Below are positions 5,220-52,071 of a stretch of DNA of 64,000 nt, one piece after another. Within the stretch, counting starts at the first letter, position 1. Each line of letters opens with the position of its first letter. A program made the translations under genes and the position numbers. The notes under the pieces were generated by a model. It saw only the letters and a program-made list of their open reading frames with translations. It searched no databases and was not told where the DNA came from. This DNA comes from Botryllus schlosseri (Eukaryota): the NCBI GenBank assembly GCA_051294905.1, contig CM119372.1, positions 16,308,001 through 16,372,000 on the forward strand. The letters are read 5' to 3'.

Positions 5220-6864
5220 GTTGCGGTTTGCACGTGAAACGTCGTAATCCGACAATCCGACGACCAGGCCGTTACAATACTTCTACATTTTTGAGAGGGA
5301 ATGAATAATCCTGTTGAAATCAATAAATCTAATGACACCACATCGCGTGAATATCGAAGAAAAATTTTCAGGTCAATAAATCTGCCTGATGGAATATCTT
5401 GGTTCCTAAGACACATAGTACCTTCAAAATATTGGCTGACAACTATATAAAATTCTTTCTCTGCCGTGACCGATTGAGAAAAAGCATTTGAGGGAATGCG
5501 TGACAGAAATCTTGCACAAGTTTAATAAACAATGACGCGCCACTTAAATAAATATCACAACGATTGATGGCTTGGAATGGTACTTTTCCTGTAAATATTT
5601 TAGCAGCAGCTCAAAAACCCCAGATTTCCGGAGTGAAATGGCTGCTCCCACTCCCAACAATAATTTGAGAAAACATTATATTTGATTCTCAATACTCCAC
5701 TTAATAGTTAGGGGATCAGGGTTAAGGGGCTATAGTTATATGGTCCTGCTTAAGCAACAGGAAGCAATCTGTCGGTCGGTTTGGAGTTTTCTGGGGGGTT
5801 TCGTTTATGTTATGATTAGACGATGATCTCAGACGAACAATGAGTGATCTTACAAATGGCATGAATGGTCTCCAATCAAGGACTGCTATCCCGGCAATGA
5901 ATAATTTAGCACGTAGAGGTAACGAAGCTCTATATTGTTAGCCTGAAGTGATTGCGTGTCGCAACGACAGTGGGATGTCATTGAGTTTCAGAAAACTACT
6001 TCGTCTCTAAAGTATTATATGCATGTATAAGGCTTGTGAAAATGTTATTTTGTATCAGTGTTACGACGTCACAGATTCGTGTTCACGTTCCTTTCAGCAA
6101 AACTTAAATGAAAGTTGGTGTTCATACAATGCCGAACCTTCCATGGGCTTCCATCTTTGCATTTCAATAATTCGAATTGCTTAGTATGATACAAAATAGA
6201 ACATATATGGAAGAAAATATGAACATATTTAGCAATTCGCTGGTTTCAGTAAAATGGCGCGATGTTCTGTACATGATGCCTAAGTAAGCGAAATTAATCG
6301 GACAAAAATATGCTGACATTGATCTAATACCTACGCTCGTCTATCCGATTTCAACAACCGCATGTCATCATTTTCCTATTTGCGACTTTGACTCCGACTC
6401 ACGGTTCGATCAAACTTCACAGTGCGACTGCAACTCATAACCCATAATGCTTCCTGACTATCATCGGTTTGTAAACAAACTCAGGTTGTGTTTACGTTTA
6501 TTCACGCAGCTCTGTTTGCACCAATCGAAACAAATCGGCCCTATTAGAAGTTGTCCCGCTGTTGAGTCGGATATCATTCTGCACTGCAGTCGTCATCACC
6601 ATAAACCAGCCATTGGAATTCCTGAGGTGATAACGTACGCCATTATGGCCCTCTACACTGACACACGAGCGCGAGTCCGAACAGATGACGGCCCAAGCGG
6701 AGATTTCAACACTTCGGCTGGTGTGCTTCAAGGTGACACCCTGGCACCATTCTTGTTCCTGGTCATCCTTGACTTCGTGCTACGAACGGCCTTCCCGGAT
6801 AATACGAACTTCTTTGAATGGCGGCCACGGAAAGGAACGCGCACGCGTACGACTCGCGAGGGAT

Positions 6865-8185
6865 AGCTGGGGATAGAACTAATGTCACCAACTACCGTCC
6901 GATATCCGTTCTCCCATGCATCGGGATTGTATTCGAAAAGTTGCTCCTCTCCCGCCTGTCCTCATTCCTCGCCAAAATGTCTGTCATTTCCCCTCAACAA
7001 TTTGGCTTCCGAAACAAACACCAAACCGCTCATGCCCTCCTAACAGTGGCCGAACAGTACTATGATATCTCAGAGAAGCGAAATGTGGGATGTAGCATTT
7101 TTCTCGACCTAAAAAAAGCGTTTGACTGCGTAGATCATAAAATTCTCATCTCGAAATTGGCGCGTTACAGACTTCGGGGCCCACAACTTGAGCTCATGAA
7201 AAGTTACCTCACTGGACGCCAACAAATGGTTGCGATCTCAGACACCTTGTCCTCTCCTCACCCGGTGACCTGTGGTGTCCTTTTCACCTTATATGTCAAC
7301 GACATTTTTGAAACCTCCTCATTGAACACCACACTGTTCGCTGATGATACTCACCTCCTCTCTTCCGCAACTTCGACGGCAGAGCTGGATGCCCTGACTG
7401 GTGACCAAATGCCCAAAGTCCATGAGTGGACGGCCCAGAACAACCTTTGCATAAACGCCTCGAAATCGCAATTGCTGACAGTTAATTCAAAAAATAACCT
7501 AACCGTTAATATCGCTGGTCAGCCCGTTTCCAACACAGATAATGCCAAATATCTCGGAGTTTTACTGGACTCGAACATGTCCTGGAAGAGTCATATTCAG
7601 TCCCTAGAAACTAAATTATCACCGAAGTGCGGCCTGTTCTACAGCCTTGGGCGCTTCATGCCAGCATGGGTTCTTCTGGTACTCTTTAAATCCTTAATCC
7701 AATCGAAGTTACATTATGGCATCCTCTGTTGGGGGGCTGCCAGTAAAACTGCACTCAAGCCACTGCAGAAACTACAGCATAAAGTGCTCCGAATCATAGC
7801 TAGGGCCCCAAAGGGGCCTGGCTGCCCATCCAATAAGTTGCTGCTGAAGAGATTCGGCGTCCTAAACATAGAAGATATGCGGAAACTAGAAATCGCCAAG
7901 TTTATGTATCAGTTTCACTGCGGTCGTTGCCCCGAATATTTCAATGACTTCTTTACCTCTGAATCAAAAACGCACAAGTACAACACACGCGCGTCCACGT
8001 CGTCCAAATATCATATGATCGACCGAAAAGATCATCGCTCCATCAAATATGCCGGACCTGATGTGTGGAACAGTATCCCGCCGGCCATCCGACAGTCGAC
8101 GAGCATGTCCACATTCAAGTCGAAATACAAGGAATTACTACTAAATAAATACAGTCCATCCTCAAGATTACCGGACCACGACTGA
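6865..8185 (+). pseudogene. Non-LTR reverse transcriptase (CR1/L2 group), truncated, with the PQGS motif deleted
   Basis: ORF track 6818..8185. It reads VTCGV|LFTLYVND where CR1/L2 RTs have GVPQGSxLGPxLF, i.e. an in-frame deletion of about 9 codons. Confidence 0.85.
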
Positions 8186-8433: not shown

Positions 8434-10289
8434 CAATCCACGTAGGTATTCTTGCCTACGCAGACGACCTAGCCTTGCTTGCCCCGAACACCGCATCGGC
8501 ACAGCGTCTCATTAACCAGCTAGAAGCCGCCGCCGCTCTTGTTGACCTCCAGATCAACGCCAAGAAGACAGGTTTTGGCCATACCAGCTCTACCGGAGAA
8601 CGCGACACCAATTCAACTGGGAGAAATCGATCTAAAGTATGTAACGAGTTTTGTATACCTCGGTATTGACGTCGCTGACTCTGGAAAAGCGCTCAAGGCG
8701 AGGCGAGCAAAGGCCTGGGGCGCGGCAAGACGGCTACATAGCCTCTTCCATTCAAGTGCCTCAACCCAGCTCAAGACCCGTATCTTCCGTGCCACTGTCG
8801 AGCAGGTTCTTCTCTACAGAATAGAGGCACTCACGCTGACAGAGAAGCTGGCTAAGACGCTCAACGCTAACTACGACGCACTCCTTCGCTATGCACTCGG
8901 CATTCACCATCCGGAGCATATAATATCCGCGAATGCATTGCGAGAACTCACAGGAACGATCCCGTGCCGTCTACTGGCAGCTGAACGACGCTTCCGCCTA
9001 ATCGGCCATCTAGTGCGGCATCAAGACGAGCAACCAGCCGCCGCCATCATCAATCACATTCCCACGGAGCCATGGCGCAGAGGTGGCTGGAATCGGAAAC
9101 ATGGCGCTCGACAATGGAGACTGATCTAGCGCAACGCGGGCGGTCGCTTGAAGACGCCCACGACCGCCTACGTTGGAGTCGCTTAACACGAGCCCAAAAC
9201 TGATGTTCTTTTGTATCCTGTTTTCTTTTGCCCTTTTTAGTTTATCTAATTGAAAAGTCGATATATATATAAACCAGCCAATGCTAGCTTCGGACGTTTC
9301 ATTCCACAGAAGACAGAGCAGCAAACCCTGCAAACTGTTAATATTCAGCAATGATTACCATTGATACGAAAATACGTGGCTGCTGAAGTAATATTTAGTA
9401 TACTGTCCATGCATTACTTCTGAAATTTTTCACATAGATAAACACATGACCATATCGTCAGTAATTGTAAATGGTGTAGTGGCTCGAGACCAGTTATAAT
9501 GGCATACTTCAATCTTTGCGGTAGCAAATATGTTGTGCTTGTTGAGTATCACAAAATATCAATTGTTTTGTTTCGGAAGTGCATATCAAGCATTTCACCT
9601 TGTATACGTGATGATACGCCCCTTCAAGCTTAACATAAGTTTATACCGTAGCTCAGTCACAGTCACAACGCGTAATCTATGGAGACAGTTCAGATATCAT
9701 AACGTTCACAGCCTACATCTTCGTGGAGTGCAGGGGTGGCCAACCGATGACCCGCGGGCCACATATTCCTCGCGAAAAGGTTTCGAGTGACCGGCGAGGT
9801 AACTTTCGAAATTATCAAAAATTATCAAAAAATAAATAGCCCAGGTTATGAACTATTATGCGTAATAGGATAAGCCTCGTTTTCACTGTTACCCAATACG
9901 GCTCGCTCGTATCGGACGACTACAAATGGTCATAAATACTCAAGTGGTCCGAGGCCCATCGCAAAGGCTCGTACATTGCATGCGGCCCTTTGGTCGACAA
10001 GGTAGGCCTCCCCGCGTAGTGGAATGCATAAATGTGGTGAAAAGCGGTAAGCATCATGTTTTTATAGACGATCATGCTGCTGGTGTGATGCAATAGGTGT
10101 AAACGATTTAGTTATTGGCGCAATGGTGGCAACATTTCTGTGTTTTTTTAATATACGTACATGCGTTTGATCGACGTGGAACCGCCGAAATATTGCAATG
10201 TATACTCGACAATGCAGCATCAAAGAGGTTGATATTAGTTGATAACATGTAGGCCTACCTGCACTTTCGCAACGGGGGTTAATTTTATC

Positions 10290-23866: not shown

Positions 23867-25109
23867 GAATATAGCTTCTTGGACTTGATGTATAACCCCC
23901 TATAGTCCTCGGTTTCTGAAGTTTTGGGGGTCCGGGGAGGGCAAAAAACCTGGAGGGGTCCATGAAAAAAAGAAAAATGAGGAGCCCTTGACTTGGACAA
24001 TTATGAAATAATTATACAATTTTTTCATTTACATTTCGATAATTTTTTCAATAAATTTTTCATTAAATGCCATGTGCTGTACGTTTTGAACGTAGTGTTT
24101 TATAACATCTCTTGCTTCGAATGCGGCCCTGCAGGAACGGAACGTGGACGCGATCCCCGGTTTCGTACACAGTTGGATAGTGAATTGTATTTTAGCGAGG
24201 TATATTGCGTGGCAGATGTTTAATGCGCACACTGCAGCAAGGATGTCGCGACTAGATATTGGTTGTTTAGCACTAAACAGTTTAGAATTAGCAGACCGAG
24301 CTAGGGATTGTCTATGCCGAAAACCAAATCACTGTATACAGCCATCATATAGCCACGTGATAAATAGCCAGCCGGCATTCCGTTAATTCATCCGTAAACA
24401 ATATCCGTCTATATTGCAAGTCCTACCGCGACGGTCAAATACCACAATATTTCAGAGTTTCATTACTAATCGAATTTTAGCAACTGCACAATTTTACCTT
24501 ACCTAGAGTGAAATGGTAATTGCGAAATGAAAATGAATGACCTAAAAAATGATGTTGGGACATATTGCTATAGTTATGCGATGGAGCTTATATATTGAGA
24601 GAGTTACGAATATGTTGGAATTAAGCCTTACATTGAACAATATCAAATCATATAATCTTCCATGCATTAGTAGATTTGGTTCGAGAAGTAGACATATAGC
24701 TAAAGAAGCATAGACTCACTTTTTCTTTCCCCTCTTGTTCTATATATTCTGCAACCAGACGTTCTTCTTGAAAGAGTGCAATAATGATTATTGCATCGGT
24801 CTTCAATAAATTTGAGAATCCGCAACACTGGTCAAATGGAAAAAATCCCAATTGAATGAACCTTCCACGATTCAGCATTCGGCAGTGTGATTATTCAGGA
24901 TACACATTTATTTATCGATTTGCATATTTGGCTTCGGAAAAGGTGTGCACTTAATCACTTATGCGCCTATTCTTGAATAATCCAGTCCGCGAAACGGATT
25001 TACATGCTATATATAATTGTATAATATGCGCCCTCAGTTAACTTGGAAATCAGTATTCTACATCCCGATGAATTTCAAATTGATGCTGCACTCAACCTAT
25101 CTTCTAATC

Positions 25110-26400
25110 CAGGGATTCTCAACCTGGGGAGCGCGCCCCCCTTGGGGGGCACGAGAAATTGACAAAGTCTGTATAAATTGTGACTGAACACGTGTTTCAC
25201 AACCATTCTGAAAAGACGATTGTTGACGATTGACCTCATTTCGTATTCTAGAAAGCTTGCCAATCTCAAACTCCACCAGTCGCGCTCAACGGAGTATAGG
25301 CTGACTTCAACTTCATTTGAGCAAATTTTTGATATTCTTTGAAGATTTAGAGCAATTACTACGTGCAAGTCATTCATTACTTTATAGCTTTGGCATTAGC
25401 CTAAATCTCGGTGCGCTATGTAGCTGTTGTTAATAGCTGGTAACTGCTCTGCCTAAGACAGACTTAGATGCAATATAGGTTGCCCGGATTCGCCCTCAAT
25501 TAGGCTATAAATCAACACAATTTAATTCATTTCCAAAACTGATCAAATTTAGCATGGTAGGACAGAACGACGCCGTGCTCTCTGTAGTCACTACCAGCAT
25601 TAGTCTCAGTGCAACCTACCTTGAAATTATTTGATGTCCTGTTCAATGTTTTTATGTTATTTTCAAACAAGTTTGGGGAAATTTGTCAGCAATGTAAAAG
25701 ACTCAACAACTGGAATGCGGATTCAAAATTAGCGCAAGATATACCTTATGTATACTATTAGATCAGGGATGGTCAACATGCGCCTGCGCCCGTAGAAGGG
25801 AATTTGTGCGGCTGCCGTCGAAGCCTAATTCAATTAGTATGTGTTGGCGGCCGTAGACATGCAAATTGCAATTGCGAATTCACTCCCGAATTTTTGAGAG
25901 ATTTTAATCTTGAAATTTTCTTCGCGCTCCGCGCAATTCAACAAGACTTTTTCGATTTCAGTGCAGTAGCGCCCTTTTTAATCTGAGCCGGAATGGGAAT
26001 CGTCAAGAAATAACAATTCATTCGCGGCTCTGAAAAATTTTCGCACCGCGCGACAATATGCACTCCCAGCAACTATTCAAAACATTGCCACTCGCGATTT
26101 CGGTGCGTACAATAGGCCGTTGCGAAAAGTAGAATAGTCCGGAGTTCACCGGGAATGGATATGGACAGTTTACCATAGGTATTTTGCGTCCATATCGTTC
26201 GATACGGCAATGCCCTGGAATGCGGCCTTGAGCTACATAAGTAATCGAAATGCGGCCATGATTAGCAAAAAGGTCGCCCTCCTCTGTATTAGATGATGTG
26301 CTCTTTTTGACATGACGATAAATGCAAGGGGGGTCAGGGGGCGCGATTTTTTTAACCATCGCTAAGGGGGGCGCGTGTCAAAAAAGGTTGAGAACCGCTG
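25110..26400. mobile_element. hAT (Buster-like) non-autonomous element
   Basis: Ends CAGGGATTCTCAACC / GGTTGAGAACCGCTG. Perfect TSD TTCTAATC. Confidence 0.85.
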
Positions 26401-27352
26401 TTCTAATCAATGCGACGGAGCCCCTTCGACGACAGTGTGTACTGTAAAATATTATAATCCTATCTGAACGAAGTAGCCAACGAATACGCTGATGGGGACC
26501 TAAAGAATCAGATTGGTTACTACGTTTCTCGTACAACCTTTCCGTAATAAGGGAATAAAAACTTAATAAATTGCCTGATTTGCCGCCGGTATGGTGGTTT
26601 GAGATTAGCCATATGCTACCCAAAATTGATCATTGTAAGATCTTCCTCGCGGAACAAGGAATTTATGATCTAATGAAAATAATTATGAAGGGTCCCAACC
26701 CATCCCCCATCCTCGACAAAGATCCTATAATTTGTCTGAAGTCGCATATTAATACCAGGGTAGATTGAAAGCAATAATATGAGCTTCCATGAGTTGCAAT
26801 TTTCTCTCTGTTTTATCCATGATACCTCTTCTTTATCAGCGTCGTTGGAAGAAGTGGGCCTGAAAGTTTTGAGTCGCTGTACGTCATCACACAACTGCCC
26901 TTACATAAATTGCCTGTTTATCATTTACCATGCAGCGAATATGATGCTCCCTTATTGATGCAGAAATCATTCGATTCATTGGTCAACTCAAGTGTAGCAA
27001 TGACAACGATAGTCGAGCGATTTCTAAATTAGGCGACGCGGTACCAGTGTATTTTTACAAGTATCAGTTTAAAATGGTGGCATTTTTCATCGTGATCCAC
27101 TCTTGCGTAACGGACATGCAAACACAGCGAATTCGCGGATTAGTGATCCAATGTACCACCCGCGAGTTCATAAACCAAATCTCTCGCGTTAAAGGTGGTA
27201 TTAAAGTAATGAAACCGCAAAAATGCCATAATATAGTGGATTTATGACGCAGTTCAATACCCATCCCGTAGCAAGTTTATTTGCGGGAGTTAGCTTATCT
27301 TTTTCTACAGTTGATTATTTGAAGAGCTTCTTGGAGGTACAGAACTTCAATA

Positions 27353-27471
27353 TACAATTAAATAGTATATTCATATTGAAATGAACCCGAATATTTTCGG
27401 CTGACACTCCTGACGAGTGTCAGCCGAAAATATTCGGGTTCATTTCAATATGAATATACTATTTAATTGTA
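27353..27471. repeat. Perfect inverted repeat (57-bp arms, 5-nt loop CTGAC)
   Basis: 27353-27409 is the exact reverse complement of 27415-27471. Confidence 0.95.
27406..27439 (+). ncRNA. Minimal type I hammerhead ribozyme motif (Penelope-like element type)
   Basis: ACUC-CUGACGA-G(UGUCAGC)C-GAAA-AUAU-UC-GGGU: complete core, 1-bp stem II, palindromic stem III, 4-bp stem I with one G-U pair. Confidence 0.6.
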
Positions 27472-27494
27472 AGTTGATTATTTTGAAAACTAAT

Positions 27495-27662
27495 ATTCTT
27501 TGGTATGTCGAGAAGCCACTACGGACTACTTGGGACATAGTCACTGGAATTGATTTTGCTTGCCAGGCTATGATTTAGGCCAGGTTGATAGCCGTCGATG
27601 CTGTTTGAACCCGAGACTGTAGATCCCGAGACCATAGTGCTCTAACCACTGGACTTCGGCGA
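27495..27662 (-). mobile_element. Possible tRNA-derived SINE remnant
   Basis: The minus strand reads AGTCCAGTGGTTAGAGCAC...GGGTTCAAAC (A/B-box-like). Boundaries approximate. Confidence 0.4.
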
Positions 27663-30600
27663 CTGTGCGTTTTTCAGTAATTTGACGACATGAACCAACT
27701 CTTCATGATTCACCTTAAGAACTGACTTTGAGAAACACTAAACACGTTTGGCGTGAAGGATCTATCCGAATTTTCCCCTGCAGAGTCTCAAAATCTCCGT
27801 GTTCTTGTACGTGTCCGTTTATCAAGTCGAAATACCGCAATCAATTGTCATCCCGTTATTGCTGAATGCAATACCATACCAAACATTTTGGCCCAGTTTC
27901 ATAAGCGTCCAAAATCGCCACCCCCATTGCTCGCATCAAATAAGTCAAGCAATATGCACTTTGAGCAAACACTACTTGGTAATTTCAATTTTCTAGTAGT
28001 CACGTCTTAATATTTGCATAATTTTCAGTTCATCAGTTTTAGTAACCGCTATTATAATATAACCACGTTCGTACCCGAACGCTCATGTATAGTTATGGAT
28101 ACTGCTTGTTATTTATTAAATTATGTGAGCATACATCCAAGTCGCGATTCCTGATCCACGTACTCACCCGACCGCCGAGAAGAAAAAGCAGTCACATCGA
28201 TACAATCGTTGTGGAAAACCAGCAGCAAAAAGAAACAGTAAGCGATGGTCGTCTTCATAGCGTTTTCTCGTTCTGCGATTGCGCACCCGGTCGGAAAGAC
28301 TTTAGCATCGCTAACTATTGAAATGAAACTGCCGGAAACAAGCCACAGTGTATAAAAATCTGTATATGCATTCGAATCCGATGTACGTTAACTGCATTAC
28401 AATACTGCTCTCACGACTCGCGTTCAAAATAGCAAGTTTCAAAGCGGTGAGTTTCAAAATATCGAATACCATATTTTGGGGGTATAGAGAAATTCGTCTC
28501 ATGTCAGCAGTTCAGTATACGTCCAAATAAAACAAACTTAGCAGCCTAATGAAATTCGCGCAGCTGTGGTTAACGAATGAAGTCAATGAAGTCATATCAT
28601 ACGACAATAATTCTAGGTAACCATTTTTTTATGCGCAACCCTCAGAAATACTAGCGATACTCAATACGCGCCCGAAAATATACAACAGTTCCACCGATTT
28701 AACAATAAAGACACCTTCCCTTTACTGTAGATTTGATAATATTGCAAAGCCTTACGTATGCAATCTGTTACGATTCTATTTAATTCAATCCAACGATATT
28801 GTAATTTATTACACTCATATATGTTGGAAGCCAACTTACCGAAATATTCCCCGGTGTTGATTTGCTGTAGAATGAGAAGTGGAACCGTATGTTCCAGCAT
28901 ATATTCTCTTTGTATTGCTCGCGTATGTCAGATCGCCAATCCTTTTTCTTGCAACCATGCTCTGTGTAATATCTCACTCCTGAATGCTGTAACACTTTGC
29001 CCTCGGAATGTCCGCTTTGAAATCGAAGTATAGCTGTTACGCAAACTTAATCGAATGGAGGAAGACAAATCGCTCGACTATGTGTTTTGAAAACAATGTA
29101 AATTCATTTGCGCAAGGTGCGGGGAAGAAAATTAAACTGCTCTGAGGGATAAGTTTGCGCCATCTGCGTGATTAGAAGACGCGATCGAAATAATGAAATT
29201 CGGGCATTCTCGCTATCCGACCTGACCGCAGCAATATGACATTATTCCCATAAAATTATAGCTTCCAGGAGCGTGAACGCATTATAAGATGTATCACTAC
29301 AAAATGGCAATGGAAACATATGACAATGTGTGTATAATATACGATTGACAAATGTTACGATAACCCACTCCAATCGGAAATATTTATTTTTTGAGATATT
29401 AGACTGCGCTTATACTAAATGTCAAATACAGCGATGATATAGCAACAATTGGATTATTTTGGGTGTATAATAAATCGGTTCTCTTTCCTAAATCGGGCAT
29501 TGAGTCTAGTTTACCGTTTGCCACTTTGGCATATTATCGGAATGTGCGCCGTTCGTTTTGCCAGCGAAGGGGAAATAATTCTTTGATCGATAGCCTTTCA
29601 TACCCATGCCATGATCGGTTAATCCTCATAACACCCACATTTGCGCAGTCATGTCTTTGTCTTCACAGGATGGGGATACAGATGTCTTAGGAATGATAGA
29701 TGAAAGATGGATAGGAAAAAATTATCCTGGAGAGAACGAAATAGGCTCGACAATATTAACATTTTCGTTTTTTAAATCCACTGTTGCTGCATGATCGCGT
29801 CTTGCTTCTCAGTCGTGTCAGAGATGCGACTGCGAATCTGCTGTCGGACACGTAAATCTAACAATCATCTTGCGTCCAAAGGAATATATGATGCGATGCG
29901 TAACAACACACGTTTGTGCGCTGCTTGGTCTCAATCACATTTTGGAATACCGTGTATTATGCGGAAAATAGTTAAAATTCCAAATACCTTTTCTATAGGA
30001 ATAGAGTGCTCGTGGACATTGTCGCGGAAATACCACAGGAAGGCTATGGAACAAACAACTGAAGCGAACGTGGTACTGACATTGTTGTTTTTCGTTAACG
30101 ACATTTCCGAACTATAAATTTTAATATTATGTGGATATTCAAACCCGAAACATTTCGAGCAAACACTCTTCAGGAGCAATCATCAGCAAGAATTTCAAAA
30201 CCTTGCATCTAACTTTATTGCACGCATCCAATATAAAAATACTATATTAAAAGCTACCTACGCCAAAACGTCTCTACATTTACTACACCAAAACACCCGA
30301 GTATGTGCAAATCCATCGACTTTGTCACACTATCACTCCACACAATAGCGTGAATTCACCTTCTTTGAACAAACCAGGTGCAGCCAATTCAAAAGCTAGT
30401 CACCCGAAGCATATTTGACATTAAGATATACAATTCTGCGATTTTCATCCTGTTTATTTTTCGATAATCGCATTATTCATGAAGAGTTGTGACAGATTGT
30501 AGGGGGTCGCATACTTTGTTAATTCAGAAAAGTGTTTGGGGTCACGAATCGTCCATAATTGGTCTGTAGAGATGACCTTTTTACAAGACGATGCGTATAT

Positions 30601-33190
30601 CTTGCGGATGGAACCCTAAACTTGTACGTCAACTTGTGAGATCGCTAATGATTTAGTCAGGATATACGGCAAATCTCCAGGAATTTGTAAATACGATTCT
30701 GCAAAATTTTTAGTCCCAATAAAATCGGTGGCCGTGGTCAGAGGGCTTGTAGGGTGAATAATGAACATACTATTTTTCATATGCATATAAACAAGAGCGT
30801 TCTCACCGTGAAAAGCATTTTACCGCTGAAGTCTTAATAATAGTGGCATGCGTGATCTAAACGATAACTCATCTTAGGTCCAGTTACATTTTGAAACAAT
30901 TAATAATGCTACAAATGTCGCTATTTCGAGATAAGTATGCTCTGCTGCAACACTTGGACACGTATAGGCGTAGCAAAGCCTAGATAAGTCATAAAGTGAA
31001 TGAGCTACAATTTTTACCGGAGCCAATAAAAGATGACAACTTCCTGAATCGCAACGGTCATGATTCACACAGTAATGCCGAATTCAATAGAGCTAATGTA
31101 TGGCATTGCCCCGAGCATTCGCCAACACACCCCCAGAATCGTACATCACGTCTAAGAATACCACCCATCGGCTTGCACTTTTGTTATTACACATATGCGT
31201 GTGAAGATTTGCATATTCCTACACTTGCGAGAATATTGGAAATGCCATACCAAAGGATTATTTAGATATTATAAGTGCGGCGAAAATACAATCATTCATG
31301 CGCTATTGTTACTGCCTATTGCGAATAGTGTCGATCACGACTTGCAAGATTGACGAATTATTTTATATGACACAATAAACAAACGATACAATGAGTTGAC
31401 AGGGAAAATCTCACAAAATCTATGATCTAGCTCCGAGTATCATATAGATCATCATAAGTAAAAGGTATATTCAGTCGTTCACAAAACTATAATTCAGTAG
31501 CCCATTACCCATCTGAAACCTTCGCTTGTAAACTTATGAACAGCATATGAACTATTCGCGCTACTTGAGAACCGTAGCATCGCATCAACGAATCTATACC
31601 AAAACCGTGGCTTCCCATGTTCAACACAACCTTTTTATGTAAGATTTGGCTCATTCGTAGAGAGAATAGTGTATCGCCAACACTTTTTTGCATACGAAGG
31701 CGAAAAAAAGCATTGCGAATTTCGTCTCTGGAGGTAATTGGAGAGCAAGTGCTACAACTTTGACACAAAATGGATAAACTGACGTTAATAAAATAGTAGT
31801 TTATTCAAACGTTAGTGATAAGCAATGCCGCGAGGTTCCTGGTGGGTGTGGCAATGACCCATTTAGAGTCAGATTTATAATATATAAACCTCAATTGGTT
31901 GCTGATTCAGCTGCATGCTTGTTTCTTATCACATTAGCACCCTTTACACGCAGGCTGCGTGAGATACCAGATATACATATCCATAATTTAAGATAGCAAA
32001 ATACATAACGGTTACATCAGTAAATCTGCGAGAAACTCATAAAAGTCTTGACCGCCTGATATGCACAATCTAACATATGGCTTGATTAAGATGTGCGATG
32101 ACCTGCCCTAAATATTCGAAGTCATCAGCTCTGCGGTAAATATGATCACGTGTGCTGAAAGAGCATAAAAATTAGTAACATATGCAAGTACAATTAAAAT
32201 CGGGAAAATTCATTTATTAACCTCAAAATATTTTCAAGCTTTTACCATAGCTAAGACAACAAATGCGCGGTAGGTCGCTGGAAATAAATAGATACGTCTT
32301 CCATTCGTGAACTGTGTAATCCCGGATTCTAGTCGTTACGGAAAGAGTGTGCTTGTTTATGAATCGTGCGTATAAAAGGTAGTGATGAAATGGCCCGTAT
32401 CGTAAGTGGTGTTGAAAATACGAGGGCTCAATAAAGGCGCTTGGTGGCGGCCTGACAAAGTAATGTTCGGATCACGGACTGAGGGTACTAGAAATTTAAG
32501 TGAAAGTACACGGGGTACCAGCTGTAAAAGGTTAAGAAACACGGCTCCAAAGGGAAAGTCAAACTAGGACTGCTCGATATTCGCGAATGGTTAGATCCGT
32601 GCTTCGTGGCATTTCATAACGTTTTGAATTGCTAATTTATAGCATTGGCCTATAAACTTGGAGTATTACTAATTACAAGTATTGTGAATTGTACGCTGTT
32701 CTCAAACCACGCATTCGCTCGAGCTATACATCGATATTATATTCATTCACACAGATTGCTCTAAAACTCTAATGGTTAAAGCGATGGAACGTGACGAGCT
32801 CTAACATTTACGTTACGTCTACAAGGTATTCACTTGTTAAACAGAAATTTTTGAAGGATAGGGAACATTGCTGCTTGATGTGTCAATAAGGCCTCCGGGG
32901 TTAAGCCCTCGCGGCTTAAATAACGCTTTTTGTACTCCATAACTACTCCATAACTGCTTTGCGGCTTTTTATTTGTCACGTTGCTGTGAATTCAACCTTG
33001 AAATTGTATTCCGGTGGCAGATATATTTCTCAATACACGGCCGGAAATATACAGCACGAAATGTGTTTTGCACTTTCATCTTTCTACCTGAAATATTTAA
33101 AATGATGCTACAGATAACGCGGAACGGATCATCTCACTATGCTTTGTTGATGCTCATCAAATAAACGCATTCATCTCTTTAAGTCCATAT

Positions 33191-33851
33191 TAGGGCTCTT
33201 CAAAAATGACTTTTTTTCTCAAATCGTACTGGCTACTTGATAAAATTGTTACATTACCTAATTTAAGCCTACACACAAAATTTGGTTCAATTCCAGCCAG
33301 TAACCGCTTTGCTACAGCAGAAGAAAATTTCTATTTATTATATAAAAATAAATAATAAAAAATTTGAAAATTTTCTGTTCACCCCATGAAAGAGTTAGGT
33401 TGTCTATAGAAATGATGCCACCAAATTTGGTTCGATTCCAACCAGTGGAAGCGGAGTTATTGCCGTCGAAAAATTTTGATTTGAATAAAATAGTATTTAC
33501 GGTGACCGATTCTTTGTTTATTTGTTATAGTTGTGCTCACCGTAAATACTATTTTATTCAAATCCAAATTTTTCGACCGCAATAACTCCGCTTCCACTGG
33601 TTGGAATTGAACCAAATTTGGTGAGCATCGTTTCTATAGACAGCCTAACACTTTCATGGGGTGAACAGAAAATTTTCACATTTTTTATCATTTATTTTTA
33701 GATAATAAATAGAAACTTTCTTCTCCTGTAGCAAAGCGGTTACTGGCTGGAATTAAACCAAATTTTGTGTGTAGGCTTAAATTAGGTAACCTAACAATTT
33801 TATCAAGTAGCCAGTACGATTTGAGAAAAAAGTCATTTTTGAAGAGCCCTG
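33191..33851. mobile_element. Palindromic (foldback) MITE, family D, more complete copy
   Basis: Ends TAGGGCTCTTCAAAAATGAC / GTCATTTTTGAAGAGCCCTG with arms of over 300 bp. TSD GTCCATAT/CTGCATAT (6/8). Confidence 0.9.
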
Positions 33852-39873: not shown

Positions 39874-41298
39874 TCAATTTTCAGACGTTGTGCAGCGGTA
39901 AAGGAATATACTGCCGGCAATACCCACAGTTATCGCAAGAGCGATGGTTATAGTAATGGTTTGTGATATATGATAGGGAAAGATTGATTGCAAAGCAGTC
40001 CCTACCAGACCGAATACGACCATAGACAAAGTCATGAAGAAATACCAAACACCAGATAGCCTACTGCGAAACGCGAAATTGGATTTCAGGTTTTCTTTAT
40101 CGCCAGCTGCTTGATGAATCATTTCGAGAAAGCCAAAGTTTTGAACAGTGGCGGCACAATTCGTGAAAACCACCACTACTACAAACAGAGGCAACAGTTG
40201 CAGAGAAGAAGCGAACGCGAAATTGATCGCAAGTAAACCAACGAAACAGATGGACATCAAAACTTCTCTATAGACGTGCTTCATATCTGAGAGGTATCCT
40301 ACCGCAGTACACGCCATCGCAACGAACGTATCACCTACCGACATAATCCAACCTACTAAAACGATTGAGATGCCCATCTTCTGTGCATATGTAGTAAAAG
40401 ATGCGTCGTACACAGCGAATGCGCCACTGCAAGCTGATGCGACACCTAGAACAAGGACAGATTTCGGGTTGAAAATGTAATACCAAGTTCGACAATCCGA
40501 ATCGTCACGTTTTTCAATGTAATCCGGCAAGAACATCCAGCCAACAACTGAAAGCAACAAGGGAGGGACAGCGCTAGCGATAAATGGAATAGATACGCTG
40601 TCTCTGATGCTATACAGGCTGCCGCCAATAATCGGACCTAAGATGAAGCCTGTACTAGTCATAACTCCAATCATACCGAACGCTTTACCAATATGGTCAG
40701 GTAGCTCTTGCCATAGAAGGGTCAGTAGAGCAACGCTAAAAAAGCCTTGTCCGAGTCCTTGCACAGCTTTCACTGAAACACCAACCGCCAAAAAGGCGTA
40801 ATGATCCAGGTAATCCAGTGACGTAAGACATCCCTGAGATAGCGCCACGCTCAAAAGTCCCATCCATATGAACTTTTTTGTGGGTATGCTCTGCTGAAAG
40901 TAGCCGCATATCAGACTCGCCAACGATGCAAGAAAATAGGATGAGTTGATAATTGCAGCAGCGTATATGCTGTCACCTCCTCGGGAGACACTGACCCTGG
41001 CAAGAAAAGTTCCCGGTATACTCGTGCAAAAGTATATGGAGGATGTACTGATCGCCGCGAATAGTACCGTGAGCTTCTGTCTTCTGCTTGTACTGGACCA
41101 GAAAGACTTCTCTTTTTCTTTCTCCGGATCACGTAAGGTTCCCTGATTTCGTTTGCAATCGCCGGTATCTTCATTATCTTGCTGCTCGCCCGCGAGAAGA
41201 TACTTAGATTCGAAGTTTGCTTCCATGCGTGAAGGTATTTTATTACAATAATAATGGACCTGGAGATTTACAAGCACCAGTCGTTTGATAGTTCTCAT
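39874..41298 (-). CDS. MFS-type transporter, SLC18B1-like (intronless paralog 1)
   Basis: Intact ORF with about 12 hydrophobic segments, N-terminal RRQKLTVL, and the motif GFILGPIIGGSLY...PF typical of SLC18/DHA1-type MFS. Start is ATG 41298 (shared with the paralog) or ATG 41226. Confidence 0.85.
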   Translation of the reverse strand: MRTIKRLVLVNLQVHYYCNKIPSRMEANFESKYLLAGEQQDNEDTGDCKRNQGTLRDPEKEKEKSFWSSTSRRQKLTVLFAAISTSSIYFCTSIPGTFLARVSVSRGGDSIYAAAIINSSYFLASLASLICGYFQQSIPTKKFIWMGLLSVALSQGCLTSLDYLDHYAFLAVGVSVKAVQGLGQGFFSVALLTLLWQELPDHIGKAFGMIGVMTSTGFILGPIIGGSLYSIRDSVSIPFIASAVPPLLLSVVGWMFLPDYIEKRDDSDCRTWYYIFNPKSVLVLGVASACSGAFAVYDASFTTYAQKMGISIVLVGWIMSVGDTFVAMACTAVGYLSDMKHVYREVLMSICFVGLLAINFAFASSLQLLPLFVVVVVFTNCAATVQNFGFLEMIHQAAGDKENLKSNFAFRSRLSGVWYFFMTLSMVVFGLVGTALQSIFPYHISQTITITIALAITVGIAGSIFLYRCTTSEN

Positions 41299-41845
41299 AT
41301 ATTTTAACGACGTCCGATTTCGGTATTCAATTCCCAGTAACGTGCTCACTGCTCAGTTTTACATTCGTAGTCTGACTCAGCACCTATGTCGTAGAGGCTG
41401 TTGTAGGGATTGCAGCTACTTGACTATACTTGATCAATTCTCGGTTGCATATTAAGATTATGAAATATGACCGCTTCATGGAGCCCTGGCTAATACATAT
41501 CAGTAACATGGGCCAATGGGAAAATGTACAGAGCCTATAGCGGTACCAATTCATGAGCGCGACAATGCATCGTTTGTCACCACGGTGGTCATGACAGTCT
41601 CTTGAATATACATATGTTCAGTAACGCACGGTGACCGAATTCCGAACACGTTTAAATATTTATTGCATGCCGTCTTGAAGCCTTATTGCCTGTATACCTG
41701 CCATTCTTTCGACGCATGTTTTCATCCCAATGCTGACGTTCGATGCTCACCATCCACACGAAAACTATTATGATAAAACAATATATTTTAAATTTTCAAC
41801 CTTTCTTATTCGCGTCAATCGGTATAAAATGAGGTTACTAAATAG

Positions 41846-44808: not shown

Positions 44809-44971
44809 TCTATACAGGAAACAAGCGCCAAATCTTCTTTCAGTAAACAACAACAACAACACACTTGCTCACATCAGTACCGTCAGTGAAACGGTCATTC
44901 CGAAATGAATCGATCCGCCAAGTCTTAAACCTTTACGTTCTGCTGAGACTGGACAAGGCACATGGTTAAAC

Positions 44972-45557
44972 CATAGTGTCCTATATGGTGTCGACACGAG
45001 CAAATCTCACGCCTCGGTGAAATTGATTCACGTCACAATTTCCATTTGACTACAGGCAATTTGACGGTCATTTTTGACCGGCTTGCCGAGCATTAAATTT
45101 GGTAAAACGGGTATCAATCGAAAGCAGACTCTGCACTGATTACGAAAATATAAATTTTATTTCGCTCGTGGCCCTGGAACTCCCACAATCAGCTTCGAAT
45201 TTTTCATTGTTATGGAGATTGGCATTGGGACGCAACAAGGCTGTCTGGCGAAACGAGAGAGTAGCTCAAGAGCAAAAGAGCCAGACAGCATTGTTGCGTC
45301 CCAATGCCAATCTCCATAACAATCAAAAATTAGAGGCTGATTGTGGGGGTTCCAGGGCCACGAGTGGAATAAAATTTATATTTTCTTAATCAGTGCGGAG
45401 TCAGCTTTCGATTGATACCCGTTTTACCAAATTTAATGCTCGGCAAGCCGGTCAAAAATGACCGTCAAATTGCCTGTAGCCAAATGGAAATTGTGACGTG
45501 AATCAATTTCACTGAGGCGTGAGATTTGCTTGTGTCGACACCATATAGGACACTATG
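44972..45557. mobile_element. Foldback element with CATAG termini and 7-bp TSD (P/Galileo-superfamily-like)
   Basis: Arms 44972-45249 and 45280-45557 are near-perfect inverted copies around a 30-nt spacer. Flanks GTTAAAC / GTTGAAC. Confidence 0.8.
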
Positions 45558-45654
45558 GTTGAACACAATATACAGCGACACATGATCACGGGGATAAATT
45601 AGCTTTGGGAAATATGAGCATGATCAATTGACACCTGGACAAGTGGGCATGCGC

Positions 45655-45888: not shown

Positions 45889-48331
45889 ATGGAGGGGATA
45901 CAACATACCAAGGCGCCGGTAAAGCGTAAAACGACTGATCCTATATCATCGGATAGTGACGAGCCTAGCAATGGCGTTAGTAACCGGCTTAAACAGAGTG
46001 GGAACAAAATCTCCGCTCGAAATTATGCAGTAGCGGACCAAAGTTCTGTATTACACACTACTACTACTAATGTTAATGAAAATATTGTTTGTTCTCCTAC
46101 GTCTGGGAGTTTATCCCGACCTCCTGCAAACACAGTTTCTCCGCCAGCGGCACAAACCAGTATTGTTTCCGATAACAATGAAAATAACATAGATAGGAAA
46201 GTGGTGATTTCAGGACAACAAAGGTCTATTCTGCGCTATCACCCAACAGTTGTAAACAGGGCGTTGTCCGCGTTGGTCACCAATTATCAAGACATCAAAC
46301 CTCTTCACAAATCCGGTAGGGGAGATGTGGTACCGATGGATCAAAAATCGCAAAATGATCTCTGGCCCTCAAGTCTTCATCCGGGAATAGCAGATCTTTT
46401 ACTGTCACAACACTTCGATACAAGCTCTACCTATCGCGGACATTTACATGAATATCCGTCTTTTCAAAAAATATTTATGAACGTTTAAAATTTGTTGCTC
46501 GAATGTGTCATTGGTCCCCACCCGGTGGGTCCCAAGGCACACGACCATGGGACCAATGAGACATACGCTGAAAAACTCAAATTTGTTAACTTGTTTTGTT
46601 GTGTACTATAAGCTAAGCTACAGCAAGCCAATGAAGAATGTTTTGTCGCGACCTTTAAGAATAAAATTGATTATATCAACTCAAATGTTGGCGTAAAATC
46701 ATGTTTTGATTTACGCCTAAATTAATGCCACATACATATTACCCGCAAATCGACATTTTGACTTTCAAATACCTCGTAATAGCGATAAAACACCACAGGT
46801 AACTATAATTTACAGCCTATATATATGTAGGCGAGTTTCTGTTGCTAAGTGATTAGTTGGTCCATCTATTTTGCTTGATTTGGCTATGGTACCATAGGTC
46901 CCCCACCCCATAAATATTGTAATTGACTTGAAAATAGTCCACTCGAGGATGGTATTGATTCAAAAAATATGTGCCATTATATACCCTGATACAAGCCCTA
47001 TACTTCACATCAAAAATTATGGCGGGTTTGTCAGTCTGAAAGGTGATATAGAAAAATGAAAAGGTCGATCCAAATTTACTTTAGACCCCCTAAAACGTAA
47101 ATCATTCGTCACAGACCCCATAACTCACGCGGGTCGATTTTTTTTGCATGTGAGGAAAGATTCTGTCAGCATGTAATTGTAGACAAATTCCCGGAGTGTA
47201 ATCAAGGAATTATCATGGAGAATTTTTCAAGTATTTTCGGTCCCAGTGATCCATCGGTACCACATCTCCCCTACTCTGCTCATCACCTGTCACAATCACA
47301 AGCAGGTTACGCAGTTGTTGTCATGCGGTAGTCTAAGCGACCCTGTGACGCATACCGATATCCCAATCGAAACGTCGAAATTCACACCAAGGCCGTTCGC
47401 CAGCTGAGCTGTTATTACGGGTGTTCCATTAGACGTAACGGACGCTGAGTTATTGGACAGCTTCGCCACCTATCATGTAACTTATGCCAAGCGACTCAAG
47501 AAGAGAAGGCTAGAAGACGGAGTCTCCGACAGTCTCTCGGTGTTACTTTGTTTTAGTACAAGGGAAGTGCCAGAATTCATTTCATTCGGATATCTTCGCT
47601 TTAGGACAAAACATTATAATCCACCCCTGACTAGGTGCTTTAAATGTAACCGCTTCGGTCACACCGCGAATTCGTGCCGCGGTAAACTTACTTGCGCGAA
47701 ATGCAGCAGTCGTGACCACGAATACAAGGATTGCCCTAACGTGAAAAAATGCGTTAATTGTAACCAACCGCATAGCGCAGGGTATGGAGGATGCCCTGTC
47801 TACAAAGAGGAAGCTAAAATTCAAATTGTTAAAAAACGCACAAACGTGTCTTTCACAGAGGCGAAGGAAATCGTACGATCTCGAACCCCTGAAACCTCTC
47901 AGACCACCTCAGCTAAGACACTGTATTCCGAAGTACATCATCGTCGTAAAACTACAGCCCGGTCTTCAACAAACAATAAGAAACCAAGTTACTATGCTTC
48001 ACCTGCCCCAAACGACGGCGATCTTAGATATCTGTCAAACTCAACTGTCGTCCCCAGCCAAATTAGTGAAGATCGACAGAATCTAACCACACCCATGTCC
48101 AGCTTGAATATCAACCCAATACAGCTGTTGGCGCTTGTTGCGGAGGTTGTGCAGCTAACGGTATCTGCATACAAAACTGGAAACAGCAACATCTTCGACA
48201 TCGTGGCGAAGGCATCGAGTAAATACTTCGGCTACTCTGTTGAATCCGATCTATTGCAGCAAGCATCAAACACATCAGATCCCTCCGTCGATAAATCTTC
48301 TCCGGTCTCGCAAGGCAGCAAAGTTCAATAG
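45889..48331 (+). pseudogene. LINE ORF1 (gag-like nucleic-acid-binding protein), interrupted
   Basis: Removing 46319-47273 restores the frame HKSG|TLLITC. One in-frame TGA at 47405-47407. Knuckles CFKCNRFGHTANSC, CAKCSSRDHEYKDC, CVNCNQPHSAGYGGC. Confidence 0.9.
46319..47271. mobile_element. TA-targeting non-autonomous DNA transposon (Tc1/mariner-pogo-like) inserted in LINE ORF1
   Basis: Perfect 25-bp TIR GGGGAGATGTGGTACCGATGGATCA. TA at 46317-46318 and 47272-47273. Confidence 0.92.
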
Positions 48332-51300
48332 AACACTCTCTCTTCTCCAATGGAACTGTCGCGGCATATATAGGAAATTGAACGAGTTCAAACAATTTGT
48401 ATCCACCCTAACCATTAAACCGGATGTTATACTTATTCAAGAGACGCACCTCATCGCGAAATACTCCCCGAAGCTACGGGGATACCATCTGCATCGACGA
48501 GACAAGACATTACACTCCGGTGGCCTCGCCACATTTGTGCACGAGTCATTGTCATCCTCGGTTTGCAATGGTTTTCAGTCGACGTGTTTTGAAATGTTAT
48601 GCGTCAACGTTAGCGGAATCAACATTTGCAACGTTTATATGGCCCCCGACGTTGTTATCGGCAGCAACGATCTTGCATGCCTACGTCACTTTTCTTCTCG
48701 GTCATTCATTTGCGGCGATTTCAATGCCCACCACTTACAGTGGAGTCACTGCTCGAACGCCAGAGGCAAAGCGATCTACGATTCTCTCGACCAACACAAC
48801 CTGGTTTTGCTGAACTCATCCCAGCCCACTCGTTTGAACATCTCCACAACAGCAGTAAACAGGTGGTCTCTTTTGGACTTGACCGTAGCCTCTTGTGATA
48901 TTGCCGCGCGATGTAACACTTCCCGTTTCCGACACCCTCATAGGAAGCGACCATTTTGTTATCTTTACAACAATCAATAATAGAATAACTCGTTCCTCGC
49001 CTAGACCCCAGAAGTGGTTGCTTGGAAAAGCTGATTGGGAGAGGTTCTCAATATGTGTGGACGATTCGCTATCGAGTGTACCCGAGAATGATGTGGAAAC
49101 ATTACATTCCACTTTTGTCGACGCTTTGAAGCGAGCAGCCACCGAAACCATTCCGCGCTCCAAATCCACAGACAAGATCCCAGTACCGTGGTGGACACCG
49201 GAATGCGCTCGAGCCATCCGCCGCAAAAGAGCAGCCTTCAAAATGATGAAACGTAGTTTCGCCACTCGTGACGTCATAGAATATAACAAACGCCGCTCCG
49301 AATGCCGCCGAACTATATTGCGATCAAAACGCTCAAGTTGGGAACGTTTCTGCGATACCCTCAACAGTCATTCGGGAATGGCGAAGGTCTGGAAAACGAT
49401 TGGTTCGATTTCGGGTAAATACAGCTCCATGTCTATACCATCTCTTATCTCGGATAACAGTAACGCCATCGGCGACTTGAGCAAGGCAAATATGCTGGCA
49501 TCGACTTTCGCTACCGTTAGCAGCTCCGAAAACTACGATCCTGACTTCCTGCTCACGAAAACCGATTTCGAAAAATCACACCCAATCAGCGACATGGTTA
49601 ATGAAAATAATCCAAATAGTCCTCTCGATAAACCATTTACACTACAAGAATTTATTGTTGCATTACGGTCACGCAAAAGCACGGCACCCGGAGATGACTC
49701 CATTTGCTATGCAACGATCAAACGCCTATCATCCGCTGCGGTTGTCAAGCTTCTTGCCCTTATAAATAGCTCTTGGGGAACAGGATGCGTTCCGGGGGCC
49801 TGGAAGCACTCCATCGTCATCCCAATCTTGAAAACAGGCAAGGAGTCGACTAGACCGGAGTTCTATCGCCCCATCTCGCTCACAAGTTATATATGTAAAA
49901 TTATGGAAACTATGGTCACGAACAGATTGCGATGGTACTTGGAATCCAAGAATCTGCTAAATAGATGTCAATCGGGTTTTCGCCATGGTCGCAGCACGCT
50001 CGACCATATTCTGAGAGTCCATGATACTGTTTATAAAGCGCTACATAATAAAAGGTCGGTGGCGGCAGTTTTTCTTGATATAGAACGGGCATACGACATG
50101 GTTTGGCGAACTGGCCTCATCCACAAGCTGTCACAAATGGGGGTAAAAGGAAACATGCTTAGGTGGATCTCAGATTTTCTAAAAAACATAACCTTCCAAG
50201 TCCGCGTGGGTAGCTCGTTGTCGCGATATCACATTCTAGAAAATGGTTTACCCCAAGGTGGCGTTATTTCGCCATTAGGCCTACTCTTCTCCGTGATGAT
50301 TAATGACCTTCCTACAGTTATCCAGTGTGAGCATGCATTATTCGCGGACGATTGCGCTATATGGGAAAGTGGATTATCCGTGGAATCCAACATCTCTGCG
50401 GTCCAGTTAGCCCTAACATCGATTCAACTGTGGTGTAAACAGTGGGGTTTCAAAATATCGCACACGAAATCAGTGGCGATGCTATTCACAAGAAAGCGAT
50501 CACTGCCATCCGTGTCTCTACGTATCGGTGGAACGCAACTCAGCTTTGTAGACAATTTTAAATATCTTGGTGTTGTTTTCGATAAATTGTTATCATATAA
50601 ATGCCATATAGAGTATCTCGAGAAAAAATGTAGCAACAGATTGAACGTTTTGCGTCTTCTGACTGGAACCTCGTGGGGCGCTGGCAAGAGTTCGCTACTG
50701 ATAATCTATAGGACAATGATACGATCACTTACAGATTATGGAATGCCAGCATACTTCTTCGCCCCGAAATCCCACCTGGTGAAGGTGGAGAAAATCCAAA
50801 ACAAGGCCCTTCGAATTATTTGCGGAGCTATGCATAGTACACCGATTTGCGCATTGCAGGCATCCTGTTGCGAAATGCCTCCCCACATTCGCCATAGGTA
50901 CCTAAGCCTAAACTACCGATGTCTTCTGCTTATTCATCCAGCGAGCAGCCACTCATCTCGGCACATTATCGAAGACTCGTGGCATGAAATATATCGTGTT
51001 ATTAATCCGAGATTCAATACTTTTAACACGCTAACGAAGTCAGCTTGTTTTGAAAACATGACGATCGAGCGATTCGATTCCCCTTCCCCTCCGTGGGATT
51101 TACCGATTCCATGCGTTGATATCGACCTATCTAGGTAAGTCTCGAAACAGGATGTACCCCAGTACATCAAATGTAGATGTCTAGACTTTATCTTTGAAAG
51201 ATTCGGCGAACACGTCCATATATTGACTGATGGTTCAAAGACTGAATATGGTGCTGGACTTGGGGTCTTCATCCCAGAATATTCGTATTGCTATAATCGG

Positions 51301-52071
51301 CCTTGCCCGACTATATCTTCCTCATTCTCAACGGAATTGAAAGCTATAGTCTTCGCGCTGATGTGGATATTACAACAGAGCAGTTCCACAAATCGACGCT
51401 ATGTGATCTTTTCCGACTGCCTGGCGACCCTGAGGGCGTTGTCATCCCCGCATACCCGTAAGCCGCATAAGGAAATATCGCTCTCATTTGATATTCTTTC
51501 ACAGATAAAGACCATGGGTGGCATGGTAACATTTGCCTGGATACCAGGTCACGCCGGAATAGACGGCAACGAGAAGGCTGACCAACTAGCTCGGGCTGCA
51601 TCAAGTCAATCGCGGGAACCCGGTATCGATATCCCAACCGTAACATTATCAGAGGCAAAAGCGGTCACCCGTCAGCTCTGCAGAGTCCAATGGCAGGCCG
51701 AGTTCACTGCAGAGGAGAGAGGGCACCACTACCGGATGTTGCGACCATCTATAGCAACAGAGGCGCCAGATTCCTGCCGAAATCGCCTATGTGAAAAAAT
51801 CCTGTTTCGCCTCCAAACCGGTCACTGTCGCCTGGCGGCACACCTATTCAAAATAGGTTGCGCCGACTCCCCCCTTTGTAATGTGTGTTACGTCCCCGAC
51901 ACGGTTGACCACATACTCTTGCATTGCGAAAAATATGACTTTCACCGAACATTTCTTGCCGACGCATGTACTACGCTCAATTTACCGTTTACTTTAACCA
52001 ATTTACTTACTATGCCGCAATTATTTACGCCGGTCGCCGAGTTTATTATTTCATGTAACTTGTATATATAG
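48312..52071 (+). pseudogene. LINE ORF2: AP endonuclease, reverse transcriptase, RNase H, C-terminal CCHC
   Basis: Motifs LLQWNCRG, IQETHL, GDFNAH, GSDH (APE); YRPISL, FLDIERAYD, PQG, FADD (RT); TDGSK, FSDC, WIPGHAGIDGNEKAD (RNase H); CNVC...H....C. Frameshift near 48923 and premature TAA at 51136-51138. Start approximate. Confidence 0.93.

Follow-up and report, generated by a model that had tools for sequence, protein, structure and literature searches.

At one point of a 64,000-nucleotide stretch of Botryllus schlosseri DNA (contig CM119372.1 of assembly GCA_051294905.1, positions 16,308,001 to 16,372,000; the whole stretch is hereafter called the window), a perfect hairpin containing the letters of a hammerhead ribozyme core stands between direct repeats. 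What kind of element inserted there, how did its two arms come to face each other, and could the ribozyme work? Our results make it probable that positions 27309-27483 are an insertion of two head-to-head 3'-end stubs of an abundant, likely Penelope-like repeat (PLE, Penelope-like element), whose clipped hammerhead is predicted to be inactive. The features concerned are listed in Table 1, where hammerhead positions follow the general numbering of this ribozyme.

Table 1. Coordinates of the insertion, its parts and the second copy of the repeat (positions of the window; TSD, target-site duplication; X5 and X6 are contig sets described in the text).
Feature	Position	Strand	Remark
Left copy of the 12-bp TSD	27309..27320	+	7-12 bp unambiguously target; site empty in X5 and X6
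One-sided 37-nt tail, the repeat's own 3' extension	27316..27352	-	on the inverted (left) arm only
Left (inverted) arm, a 3' stub of the repeat that ends within the hammerhead, at G8	27353..27409	-	
5-nt loop CTGAC	27410..27414	+	sense strand of the right stub; hammerhead C3-U4-G5-A6-N7
Right arm, a tail-less 3' stub of the repeat	27415..27471	+	native sequence 27409-27471
Hammerhead remnant	27409..27439	+	lacks the native 5' side of stem I and, upstream of it, the strand of the predicted pseudoknot
ATG-started frame of 19 codons, MNILFNCILKFCTSKKLFK	27315..27374	-	crosses arm and tail; stop at the target junction
Right copy of the 12-bp TSD	27472..27483	+	
Second, decayed copy of the repeat family	30110..30190	-	own upstream leader, degenerate hammerhead, no inverted arm

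The 119-bp perfect palindrome of the original prediction is real: its 57-bp arms at 27353-27471 match in 57 of 57 pairs around the loop, and it is the sole perfect inverted repeat in the window with arms of at least 14 bp and a loop of up to 30. The borders of the insertion, on the other hand, had to be redrawn. They had been read as a TSD of 15/16 bp around a 148-bp insert at 27324-27471, with 29 bp of the insert treated as unrelated to the arms. The ungapped duplication is in fact 12 bp long (27309-27320 and 27472-27483, 100% identical), 151 bp separate its copies, and the 29 bp are part of the family's 37-nt tail. Other copies of the repeat match the window down to 27316-27318, and 27316-27323 is therefore element sequence; the one-base mismatch between the formerly proposed TSD copies arises because the left one ends in that sequence. 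The last 5 nt of the left TSD copy (27316-27320) are common to the target and to the end of the element's tail. What the insertion holds of the element comes to stubs of about 63 and 94 nt with no coding body, both arms being 5'-truncated (in other copies a native leader lies upstream of 27409).

The evidence for a repeat family comes from public data of the same species, of which 4 of 24 runs were aligned to 26950-27850 at 85% likeness. Three of these are contig sets (X1, X5 and X6) and one consists of raw RNA reads (X23); X1 is possibly the source sample and hence not independent, and X5 and X6 come from other samples and studies. Almost all aligned contigs fell on the insert (53,938 of 23,782,245 in X1, 4,132 of 757,910 in X5 and 2,240 of 802,150 in X6), the flanks having a depth of 5-25. 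The summed depth, which is not a copy number, was 1.5 million at 27322-27352 versus 13-25 in the flanks. Judged by the number of distinct contigs, the repeat is very high-copy and its flanks are single-copy. Family contigs are unbroken from 27313-27320 to about 27409 in all three sets. At the distal side, loose ends are found at 27316-27318 (411, 217 and 226 contigs in X1; 93 at 27316 in X5), beyond which the copies pass into unrelated AT-rich flanks (agreement 0.36-0.40); the repeat is thus shown to have a fixed distal end at 27316-27318. Loose ends seen in RNA only, at 27321 (142 reads) and 27329 (102 reads) in X23 with an agreement of 0.50-0.55, lie inside the tail and may come from single expressed loci or related subfamilies. 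At the opposite side the copies share a native leader upstream of 27409 (457, 176 and 99 contigs and 401 RNA reads; agreement 0.58-0.72). At 27408, C accounts for roughly two thirds of the contig depth (4003.5 of 5760 in X1, 413 of 643 in X5 and 157 of 276 in X6).

The same data bear on whether the hairpin belongs to the genome at all. The empty allele that the original prediction had called for exists, the site being empty in both of the other samples: in X5 a contig joins 27312 to 27477 through 2 letters, one more than expected of a clean single target, and in X6 a contig carries 48 letters in place of the window's 202. In this respect the data support a Penelope-type insertion that is truncated, inverted and polymorphic among samples. 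Its presumed recency held in part, since the flanks of X5 and X6 differ from the window by 5-7% and 'recent' can consequently mean only 'not fixed'. That the hairpin arose in assembly or amplification is very improbable, even if no contig spans the junction of the insertion among the eight X1 records listed: the inversion is confined to the repeat and halts at the family's own tail end, the framing 12-bp duplication is single in other haplotypes, similar joints recur in three independent contig sets, and the X1 depth falls from 13-17 in the outer flank to 8 at 27509-27514, in keeping with one haplotype out of two.

Nor does a miniature inverted-repeat DNA transposon (MITE), in which the 57-bp arms would be terminal inverted repeats with TA ends and the hammerhead letters incidental, account for these copies. 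The palindrome does begin and end with TA, and other foldback elements occur in the window. Instead of fixed terminal inverted repeats and a short fixed TSD, however, we find family copies that are one-armed or have variable arm lengths, that extend beyond one arm into a fixed one-sided tail and beyond the centre into a leader common to the family, and a duplication of 12 bp; the empty site lacks the tail as well, and the second window copy has no inverted arm. We regard this identity as scarcely credible.

The hammerhead letters lie where the original prediction had placed them, with CUGACGA at 27410-27416, GAAA at 27426-27429, C17 at 27435 and GGGU at 27436-27439. Stem II is a single pair (G27417-C27425) without a bulge, closed by a 7-nt loop II (27418-27424), stem III is the dimer-type palindrome AAUAUU at 27429-27434, and the predicted cut falls after C27435. 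A type I descriptor, which adds G10.1-C11.1, A15.1-U16.1, H17 and a 4-bp stem I to the core, matched the window twice (27410 on the plus and 30173 on the minus strand) and had no match in 200 simulated windows matched for dinucleotide composition; the bare core pattern CTGANGA...GAAA occurs at chance level (5 observed, 4.3 expected in the window). Rfam searches at E up to 10 of 25000-30000, 27400-27480 and 30100-30220 returned no hammerhead family. A match to mir-3913, under its gathering score, mirrors the long hairpin only and was rejected. The expectation of many other copies with the same core was confirmed in the contig sets and by the decayed copy at 30110-30190; nhmmer found no further copies in the window. 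Ten places vary in at least 5% of the X1 depth, and the eight listed are all outside the core; G27436, in the first stem I pair, varies in 19% (X1).

The ribozyme had also been considered complete, and this did not survive comparison with the family, which reads C at 27408 and has a different shared sequence upstream of 27409. The native stem I is ACCC/GGGU, and the ACUC found here instead is supplied by the left arm's end. In folding predictions, the hammerhead fold of 27406-27439 has an energy of +8.7 kcal/mol versus -10.5 kcal/mol for the best fold, which consists of two hairpins, and the whole insert folds at -95.9 kcal/mol; the suggestion that the hairpin sequesters the ribozyme is in agreement with these values. 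We infer that the hammerhead of this insertion is inactive, and a transcript of it is predicted to form a 57-bp double-stranded hairpin, not a ribozyme.

RNA reads and other collections add little to this picture. Of 12,895,792 reads of X23, about 6% of the run, 2,799 aligned, on both strands, and read starts or ends did not pile up at the cut site or at any other place. An ordinary RNA library makes this a weak test; for an anole PLE, too, no RNA-seq ends were found at the site of cleavage (PMC11167929). The depth of X23 on the insertion flanks is zero, and as this sample may lack the insertion, that value says nothing about expression of the 27309-27483 copy. No RNA run was listed as containing the 2.2-kb stretch. 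A metagenome scan with a pattern requiring the non-native CTC gave 0 matches, and viral contigs gave 0 matches to the hammerhead pattern. The single match of the 21-nt core-plus-loop motif, on the minus strand of a GC-rich metagenome contig (L001:404-424), lies directly after a stop codon, has neither stem I nor stem III and was treated as chance.

The second copy in the window (copy 2) is 71.8% identical to the first over 71 columns, and its local score of 53 compares with 33 for the best of 790 control segments. By eye, 13 of 16 letters of its leader match the family leader. Its stem III region is not palindromic, and downstream it reads LNIHIILKF, versus MNILFNCILKF in the first copy. The 19-codon frame has its ATG 14 nt past the predicted cut site on the minus strand and counts 7 codons without the tail; the two listed family variants inside it (mirror positions 27459 and 27464) are both synonymous, and the frame had no match among proteins. 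Judging from sequence, this frame is a candidate for the N-terminus of the element's ORF, a reading to be weighed against the fact that frames so short are common by chance. In Adineta, the pseudo-LTR (pLTR) of Pen2a holds the first 12 ORF codons, or 22 with the tail (PMC3846280). Searches for a coding body came back empty: no protein homologue was found for a 40-residue frame, 25 read-through frames covering 25601-31602 contained no Pfam family, and an 80-residue frame upstream of copy 2 had no homologue, with none of its 16 multi-stretch matches belonging to a reverse transcriptase (RT) or GIY-YIG family. To the eye, the frame upstream of copy 2 had looked like the C-terminus of a GIY-YIG protein; protein and Pfam searches lent this no support, and it was dropped. 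Beside neither window copy did we find an RT or GIY-YIG ORF tied to the repeat family.

Elsewhere the window contains a LINE at 45889-52071 on the plus strand, with a zinc-knuckle ORF1 and endonuclease, RT and RNase H-like frames that, judged from translations, are interrupted by a few stops and frameshifts, as well as further RT remnants at 6818-8185 and 8524-9129. Two large foldback or MITE-like inverted repeats lie at 44965-45564 and 33212-33831, with arms of 285 nt and 207 nt that are 95% complementary. A local inverted gene duplication is represented by two uninterrupted MFS/SLC18B1-like ORFs on opposite strands, at 39874-41352 (minus) and 53522-54970 (plus), 84% alike over 1,402 nt. Together with the LINE-type ORFs, these two transporter genes give the window the appearance of animal DNA.

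A closer competitor holds that the repeat derives from a pLTR as a non-autonomous element of SINE or retrozyme type, borrowing the PLE enzyme, as opposed to being the broken end of a coding PLE. The very high abundance would suit such a derivative, as would the lack of a coding remnant beside either window copy, and animal retrozymes have been proposed to stem from pLTRs (bioRxiv 10.64898/2026.07.22.740005). Like the non-LTR animal retrozymes (Cervera and de la Pena 2020, PMC7229834, and the same preprint), the present repeat is short, high-copy and type I hammerhead-bearing, with a TSD of more than 4 bp. Unlike them, it has an inverted layout with a tail and a minimal hammerhead, and neither window copy shows tandem 150-450-bp units with a canonical type I hammerhead, and a tandem retrozyme finds no support at this locus. 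Canonical metazoan type I motifs have a helix I of 6 bp and a helix II of 4 bp (PMC4209133), both lacking here, and the ATG frame across arm and tail, with its synonymous common variants, resembles what is seen in PLE pLTRs. A non-autonomous derivative accordingly appears doubtful to us.

Placing the repeat with the coding PLEs rests on analogy in structure. In endonuclease-bearing (EN+) PLEs, an adjacent inverted 5'-truncated copy is found and a tail of 30-40 bp often occurs at one end only (Craig et al. 2021, PMC8557442); in another description the inverted pLTR is shorter than the direct one, with a 31-bp tail and a 9-bp TSD (Arkhipova et al. 2013, PMC3846280). The insertion has an inverted 5'-truncated copy joined head to head, a tail at one end only that is contiguous with the arm in other copies, and a short TSD that is single at the empty site, with one letter extra in X5. 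The pLTRs of PLEs carry minimal type I hammerheads with a palindromic stem III, present mostly as dispersed truncated copies (PMC4209133). The repeat inserts in the manner of a PLE, and its likely identity is the end of a coding PLE rather than a non-autonomous derivative. The insertion itself is unlikely to have a function.

How the two stubs were joined can be pictured along the general lines of target-primed reverse transcription. The PLE reverse transcriptase/GIY-YIG endonuclease would place one nick in each strand of an AT-rich target, with about 12 bp between the nicks; cDNA would be primed by one strand at the proximal start point of the element (27471) and by the other at the distal one (27316), aided by the 5-nt match between target and tail end, and both cDNAs, stopping after about 60-95 nt, would be joined via a few paired bases at the hammerhead. 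Consistent with this, the PLE enzyme has been reported to nick and extend both strands, with two RT start sites bracketing the tail and AT-rich targets (Frangieh et al. 2024, PMC11167929). The original prediction had invoked a fold-back primed at ACTC/GAGT: the first cDNA would pair with itself there (or at ACTC/GGGT, with a G-T wobble) and copy itself, the tail of the first strand being lost at resolution. The left arm holds 37 nt with no counterpart in the right arm; merely copying the latter could not have produced them, and the fold-back requires that extra step. It is weakened further by the ACCC, not ACTC, of most copies, even though copy 2 has T at this place and ACCC could pair through a G-T wobble.

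Joints in other copies speak to both routes. Of 128 joints, 15 were listed, and 13 of those 15 join a left arm head-to-head to a right arm; the listed joints fall at varied points, some with filler letters and several with no shared letters, neither of which a fold-back would lead one to expect. Against joining of two primed cDNAs stands the observation that the tail-bearing arm is the shorter one in all seven listed joints with 7 nt of tail or more, an asymmetry which that route does not predict by itself. A fold-back accommodates it, because the loop then belongs to the longer, tail-less arm, here as in those seven informative joints. The count, taken from 15 of 128 joints, may nonetheless be biased, since a joint whose tail-bearing arm is the longer one amounts to a short skip, which alignment software may treat as a deletion. 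The arms are moreover identical down to a shared minority allele (A27360/T27464; the other allele accounts for 69-90% in the three contig sets), as the copying of one strand would give. Self-priming has been proposed as a source of junction palindromes, there on the antisense template (PMC3846280), and the tail has been ascribed to endonuclease-mediated resolution (PMC8557442). Two separately primed cDNAs would explain the tail, the TSD and the filler letters at other joints, and fit somewhat better than a simple fold-back. We lean towards the two-primer route, keep fold-back with later loss of one tail as a possible but lesser contender, and consider any other route improbable. In the literature searched, no description of twin priming in PLEs was found. 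The many short polymorphic insertions are good material for studying how PLE inverted ends and tails form, and counts of arm lengths, tails and junction letters would separate the two routes.

Comparison of the family with the clipped copy also suggests how an intact hammerhead with a 1-bp stem II might be held together. In the family leader, four bases before stem I, the sequence GCUGACG is by eye complementary to all seven loop II bases UGUCAGC, one of the pairs being G-U and the other six Watson-Crick. Among 4,266 30-mers of the window, 53 (1.2%) contain a perfect 6-nt complement of loop II. Copy 2 keeps six of the seven possible pairs, with three more G-U, and as none of its changes is compensatory there is no covariation support for the pseudoknot. 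When the leader is left out, loop II pairs with the core's own CUGAC in the fold of 27406-27439, and from its native position in the insertion the upstream strand is absent. In intact family members the 1-bp stem II is likely held by the 7-bp pairing of loop II with the upstream strand, and stem III would likely require a partner molecule. The leader may even be a switch, because loop II can pair instead with the core's own CUGAC: when present it would pair with loop II and free the core, and when lost by 5' truncation, as in this insertion, the RNA would fall into an inactive hairpin. That the intact ribozyme is a type I, dimer-type PLE variant with a 1-bp stem II, a leader-paired 7-nt loop II and such a switch is offered as a tentative model. 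Just 5' of the predicted pseudoknot strand the leader also has a pyrimidine run followed by AG, which could be a 3' splice site by analogy with the Penelope of Drosophila virilis, where an intron ends at helix I (PMC4209133).

A pseudoknot of this kind has a precedent. In an active hammerhead with a 1-bp stem II, described in 2011, the pseudoknot is needed for fast cleavage, and shortening it lowers the rate about 20-fold and then more than 100-fold (PMC3088659). The main text of the literature that we searched contained no description of a pseudoknot in PLE hammerheads, though such a variant may be in print. PLE hammerheads have no settled role and show little activity in vitro, and a natural variant with a predicted pseudoknot could show whether a tertiary contact is the missing factor; if true, the switch would mean that a PLE hammerhead has a defined tertiary contact as well as an off state of its own. 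The insertion is ordinary, and only the family's ribozyme with its predicted 1-bp stem II stands out.

Set beside known systems, the insertion is a new, very small example of a layout already published for PLEs. With the endonuclease-bearing members it shares head-to-head stubs, a one-sided 37-nt tail, a 12-bp TSD in AT-rich DNA, a shorter inverted arm and a hammerhead near the 3' end, and the candidate ORF start in the terminal repeat may be a further likeness; it differs from them by its extreme truncation. As in PLE minimal hammerheads (PMC4209133), the core is full (CUGANGA, GAAA and NUH, its ends closed by stem I), with G10.1-C11.1, a 4-bp helix I, a palindromic helix III region, an unstable monomer fold and dispersed single copies, and the palindromic helix III with a 2-nt insertion recalls the Penelope of Drosophila virilis. 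Helix II sets it apart: it has 1 bp here, as compared with 6-8 bp and an unpaired base after A9 in the minimal PLE motifs described there, including the 7-8-bp helix II of schistosome PLE hammerheads. PLE motifs have been described as devoid of helix III or of the usual loop-loop contacts (PMC7761336), whereas here loop II is complementary to the leader in the predicted pseudoknot. The 1-bp stem II with a pseudoknot, predicted in our case, is a feature in common with the hammerhead of PMC3088659, which is type II and from a metagenome, whereas the one predicted here is type I, belongs to an animal retroelement and has a dimer-type stem III.
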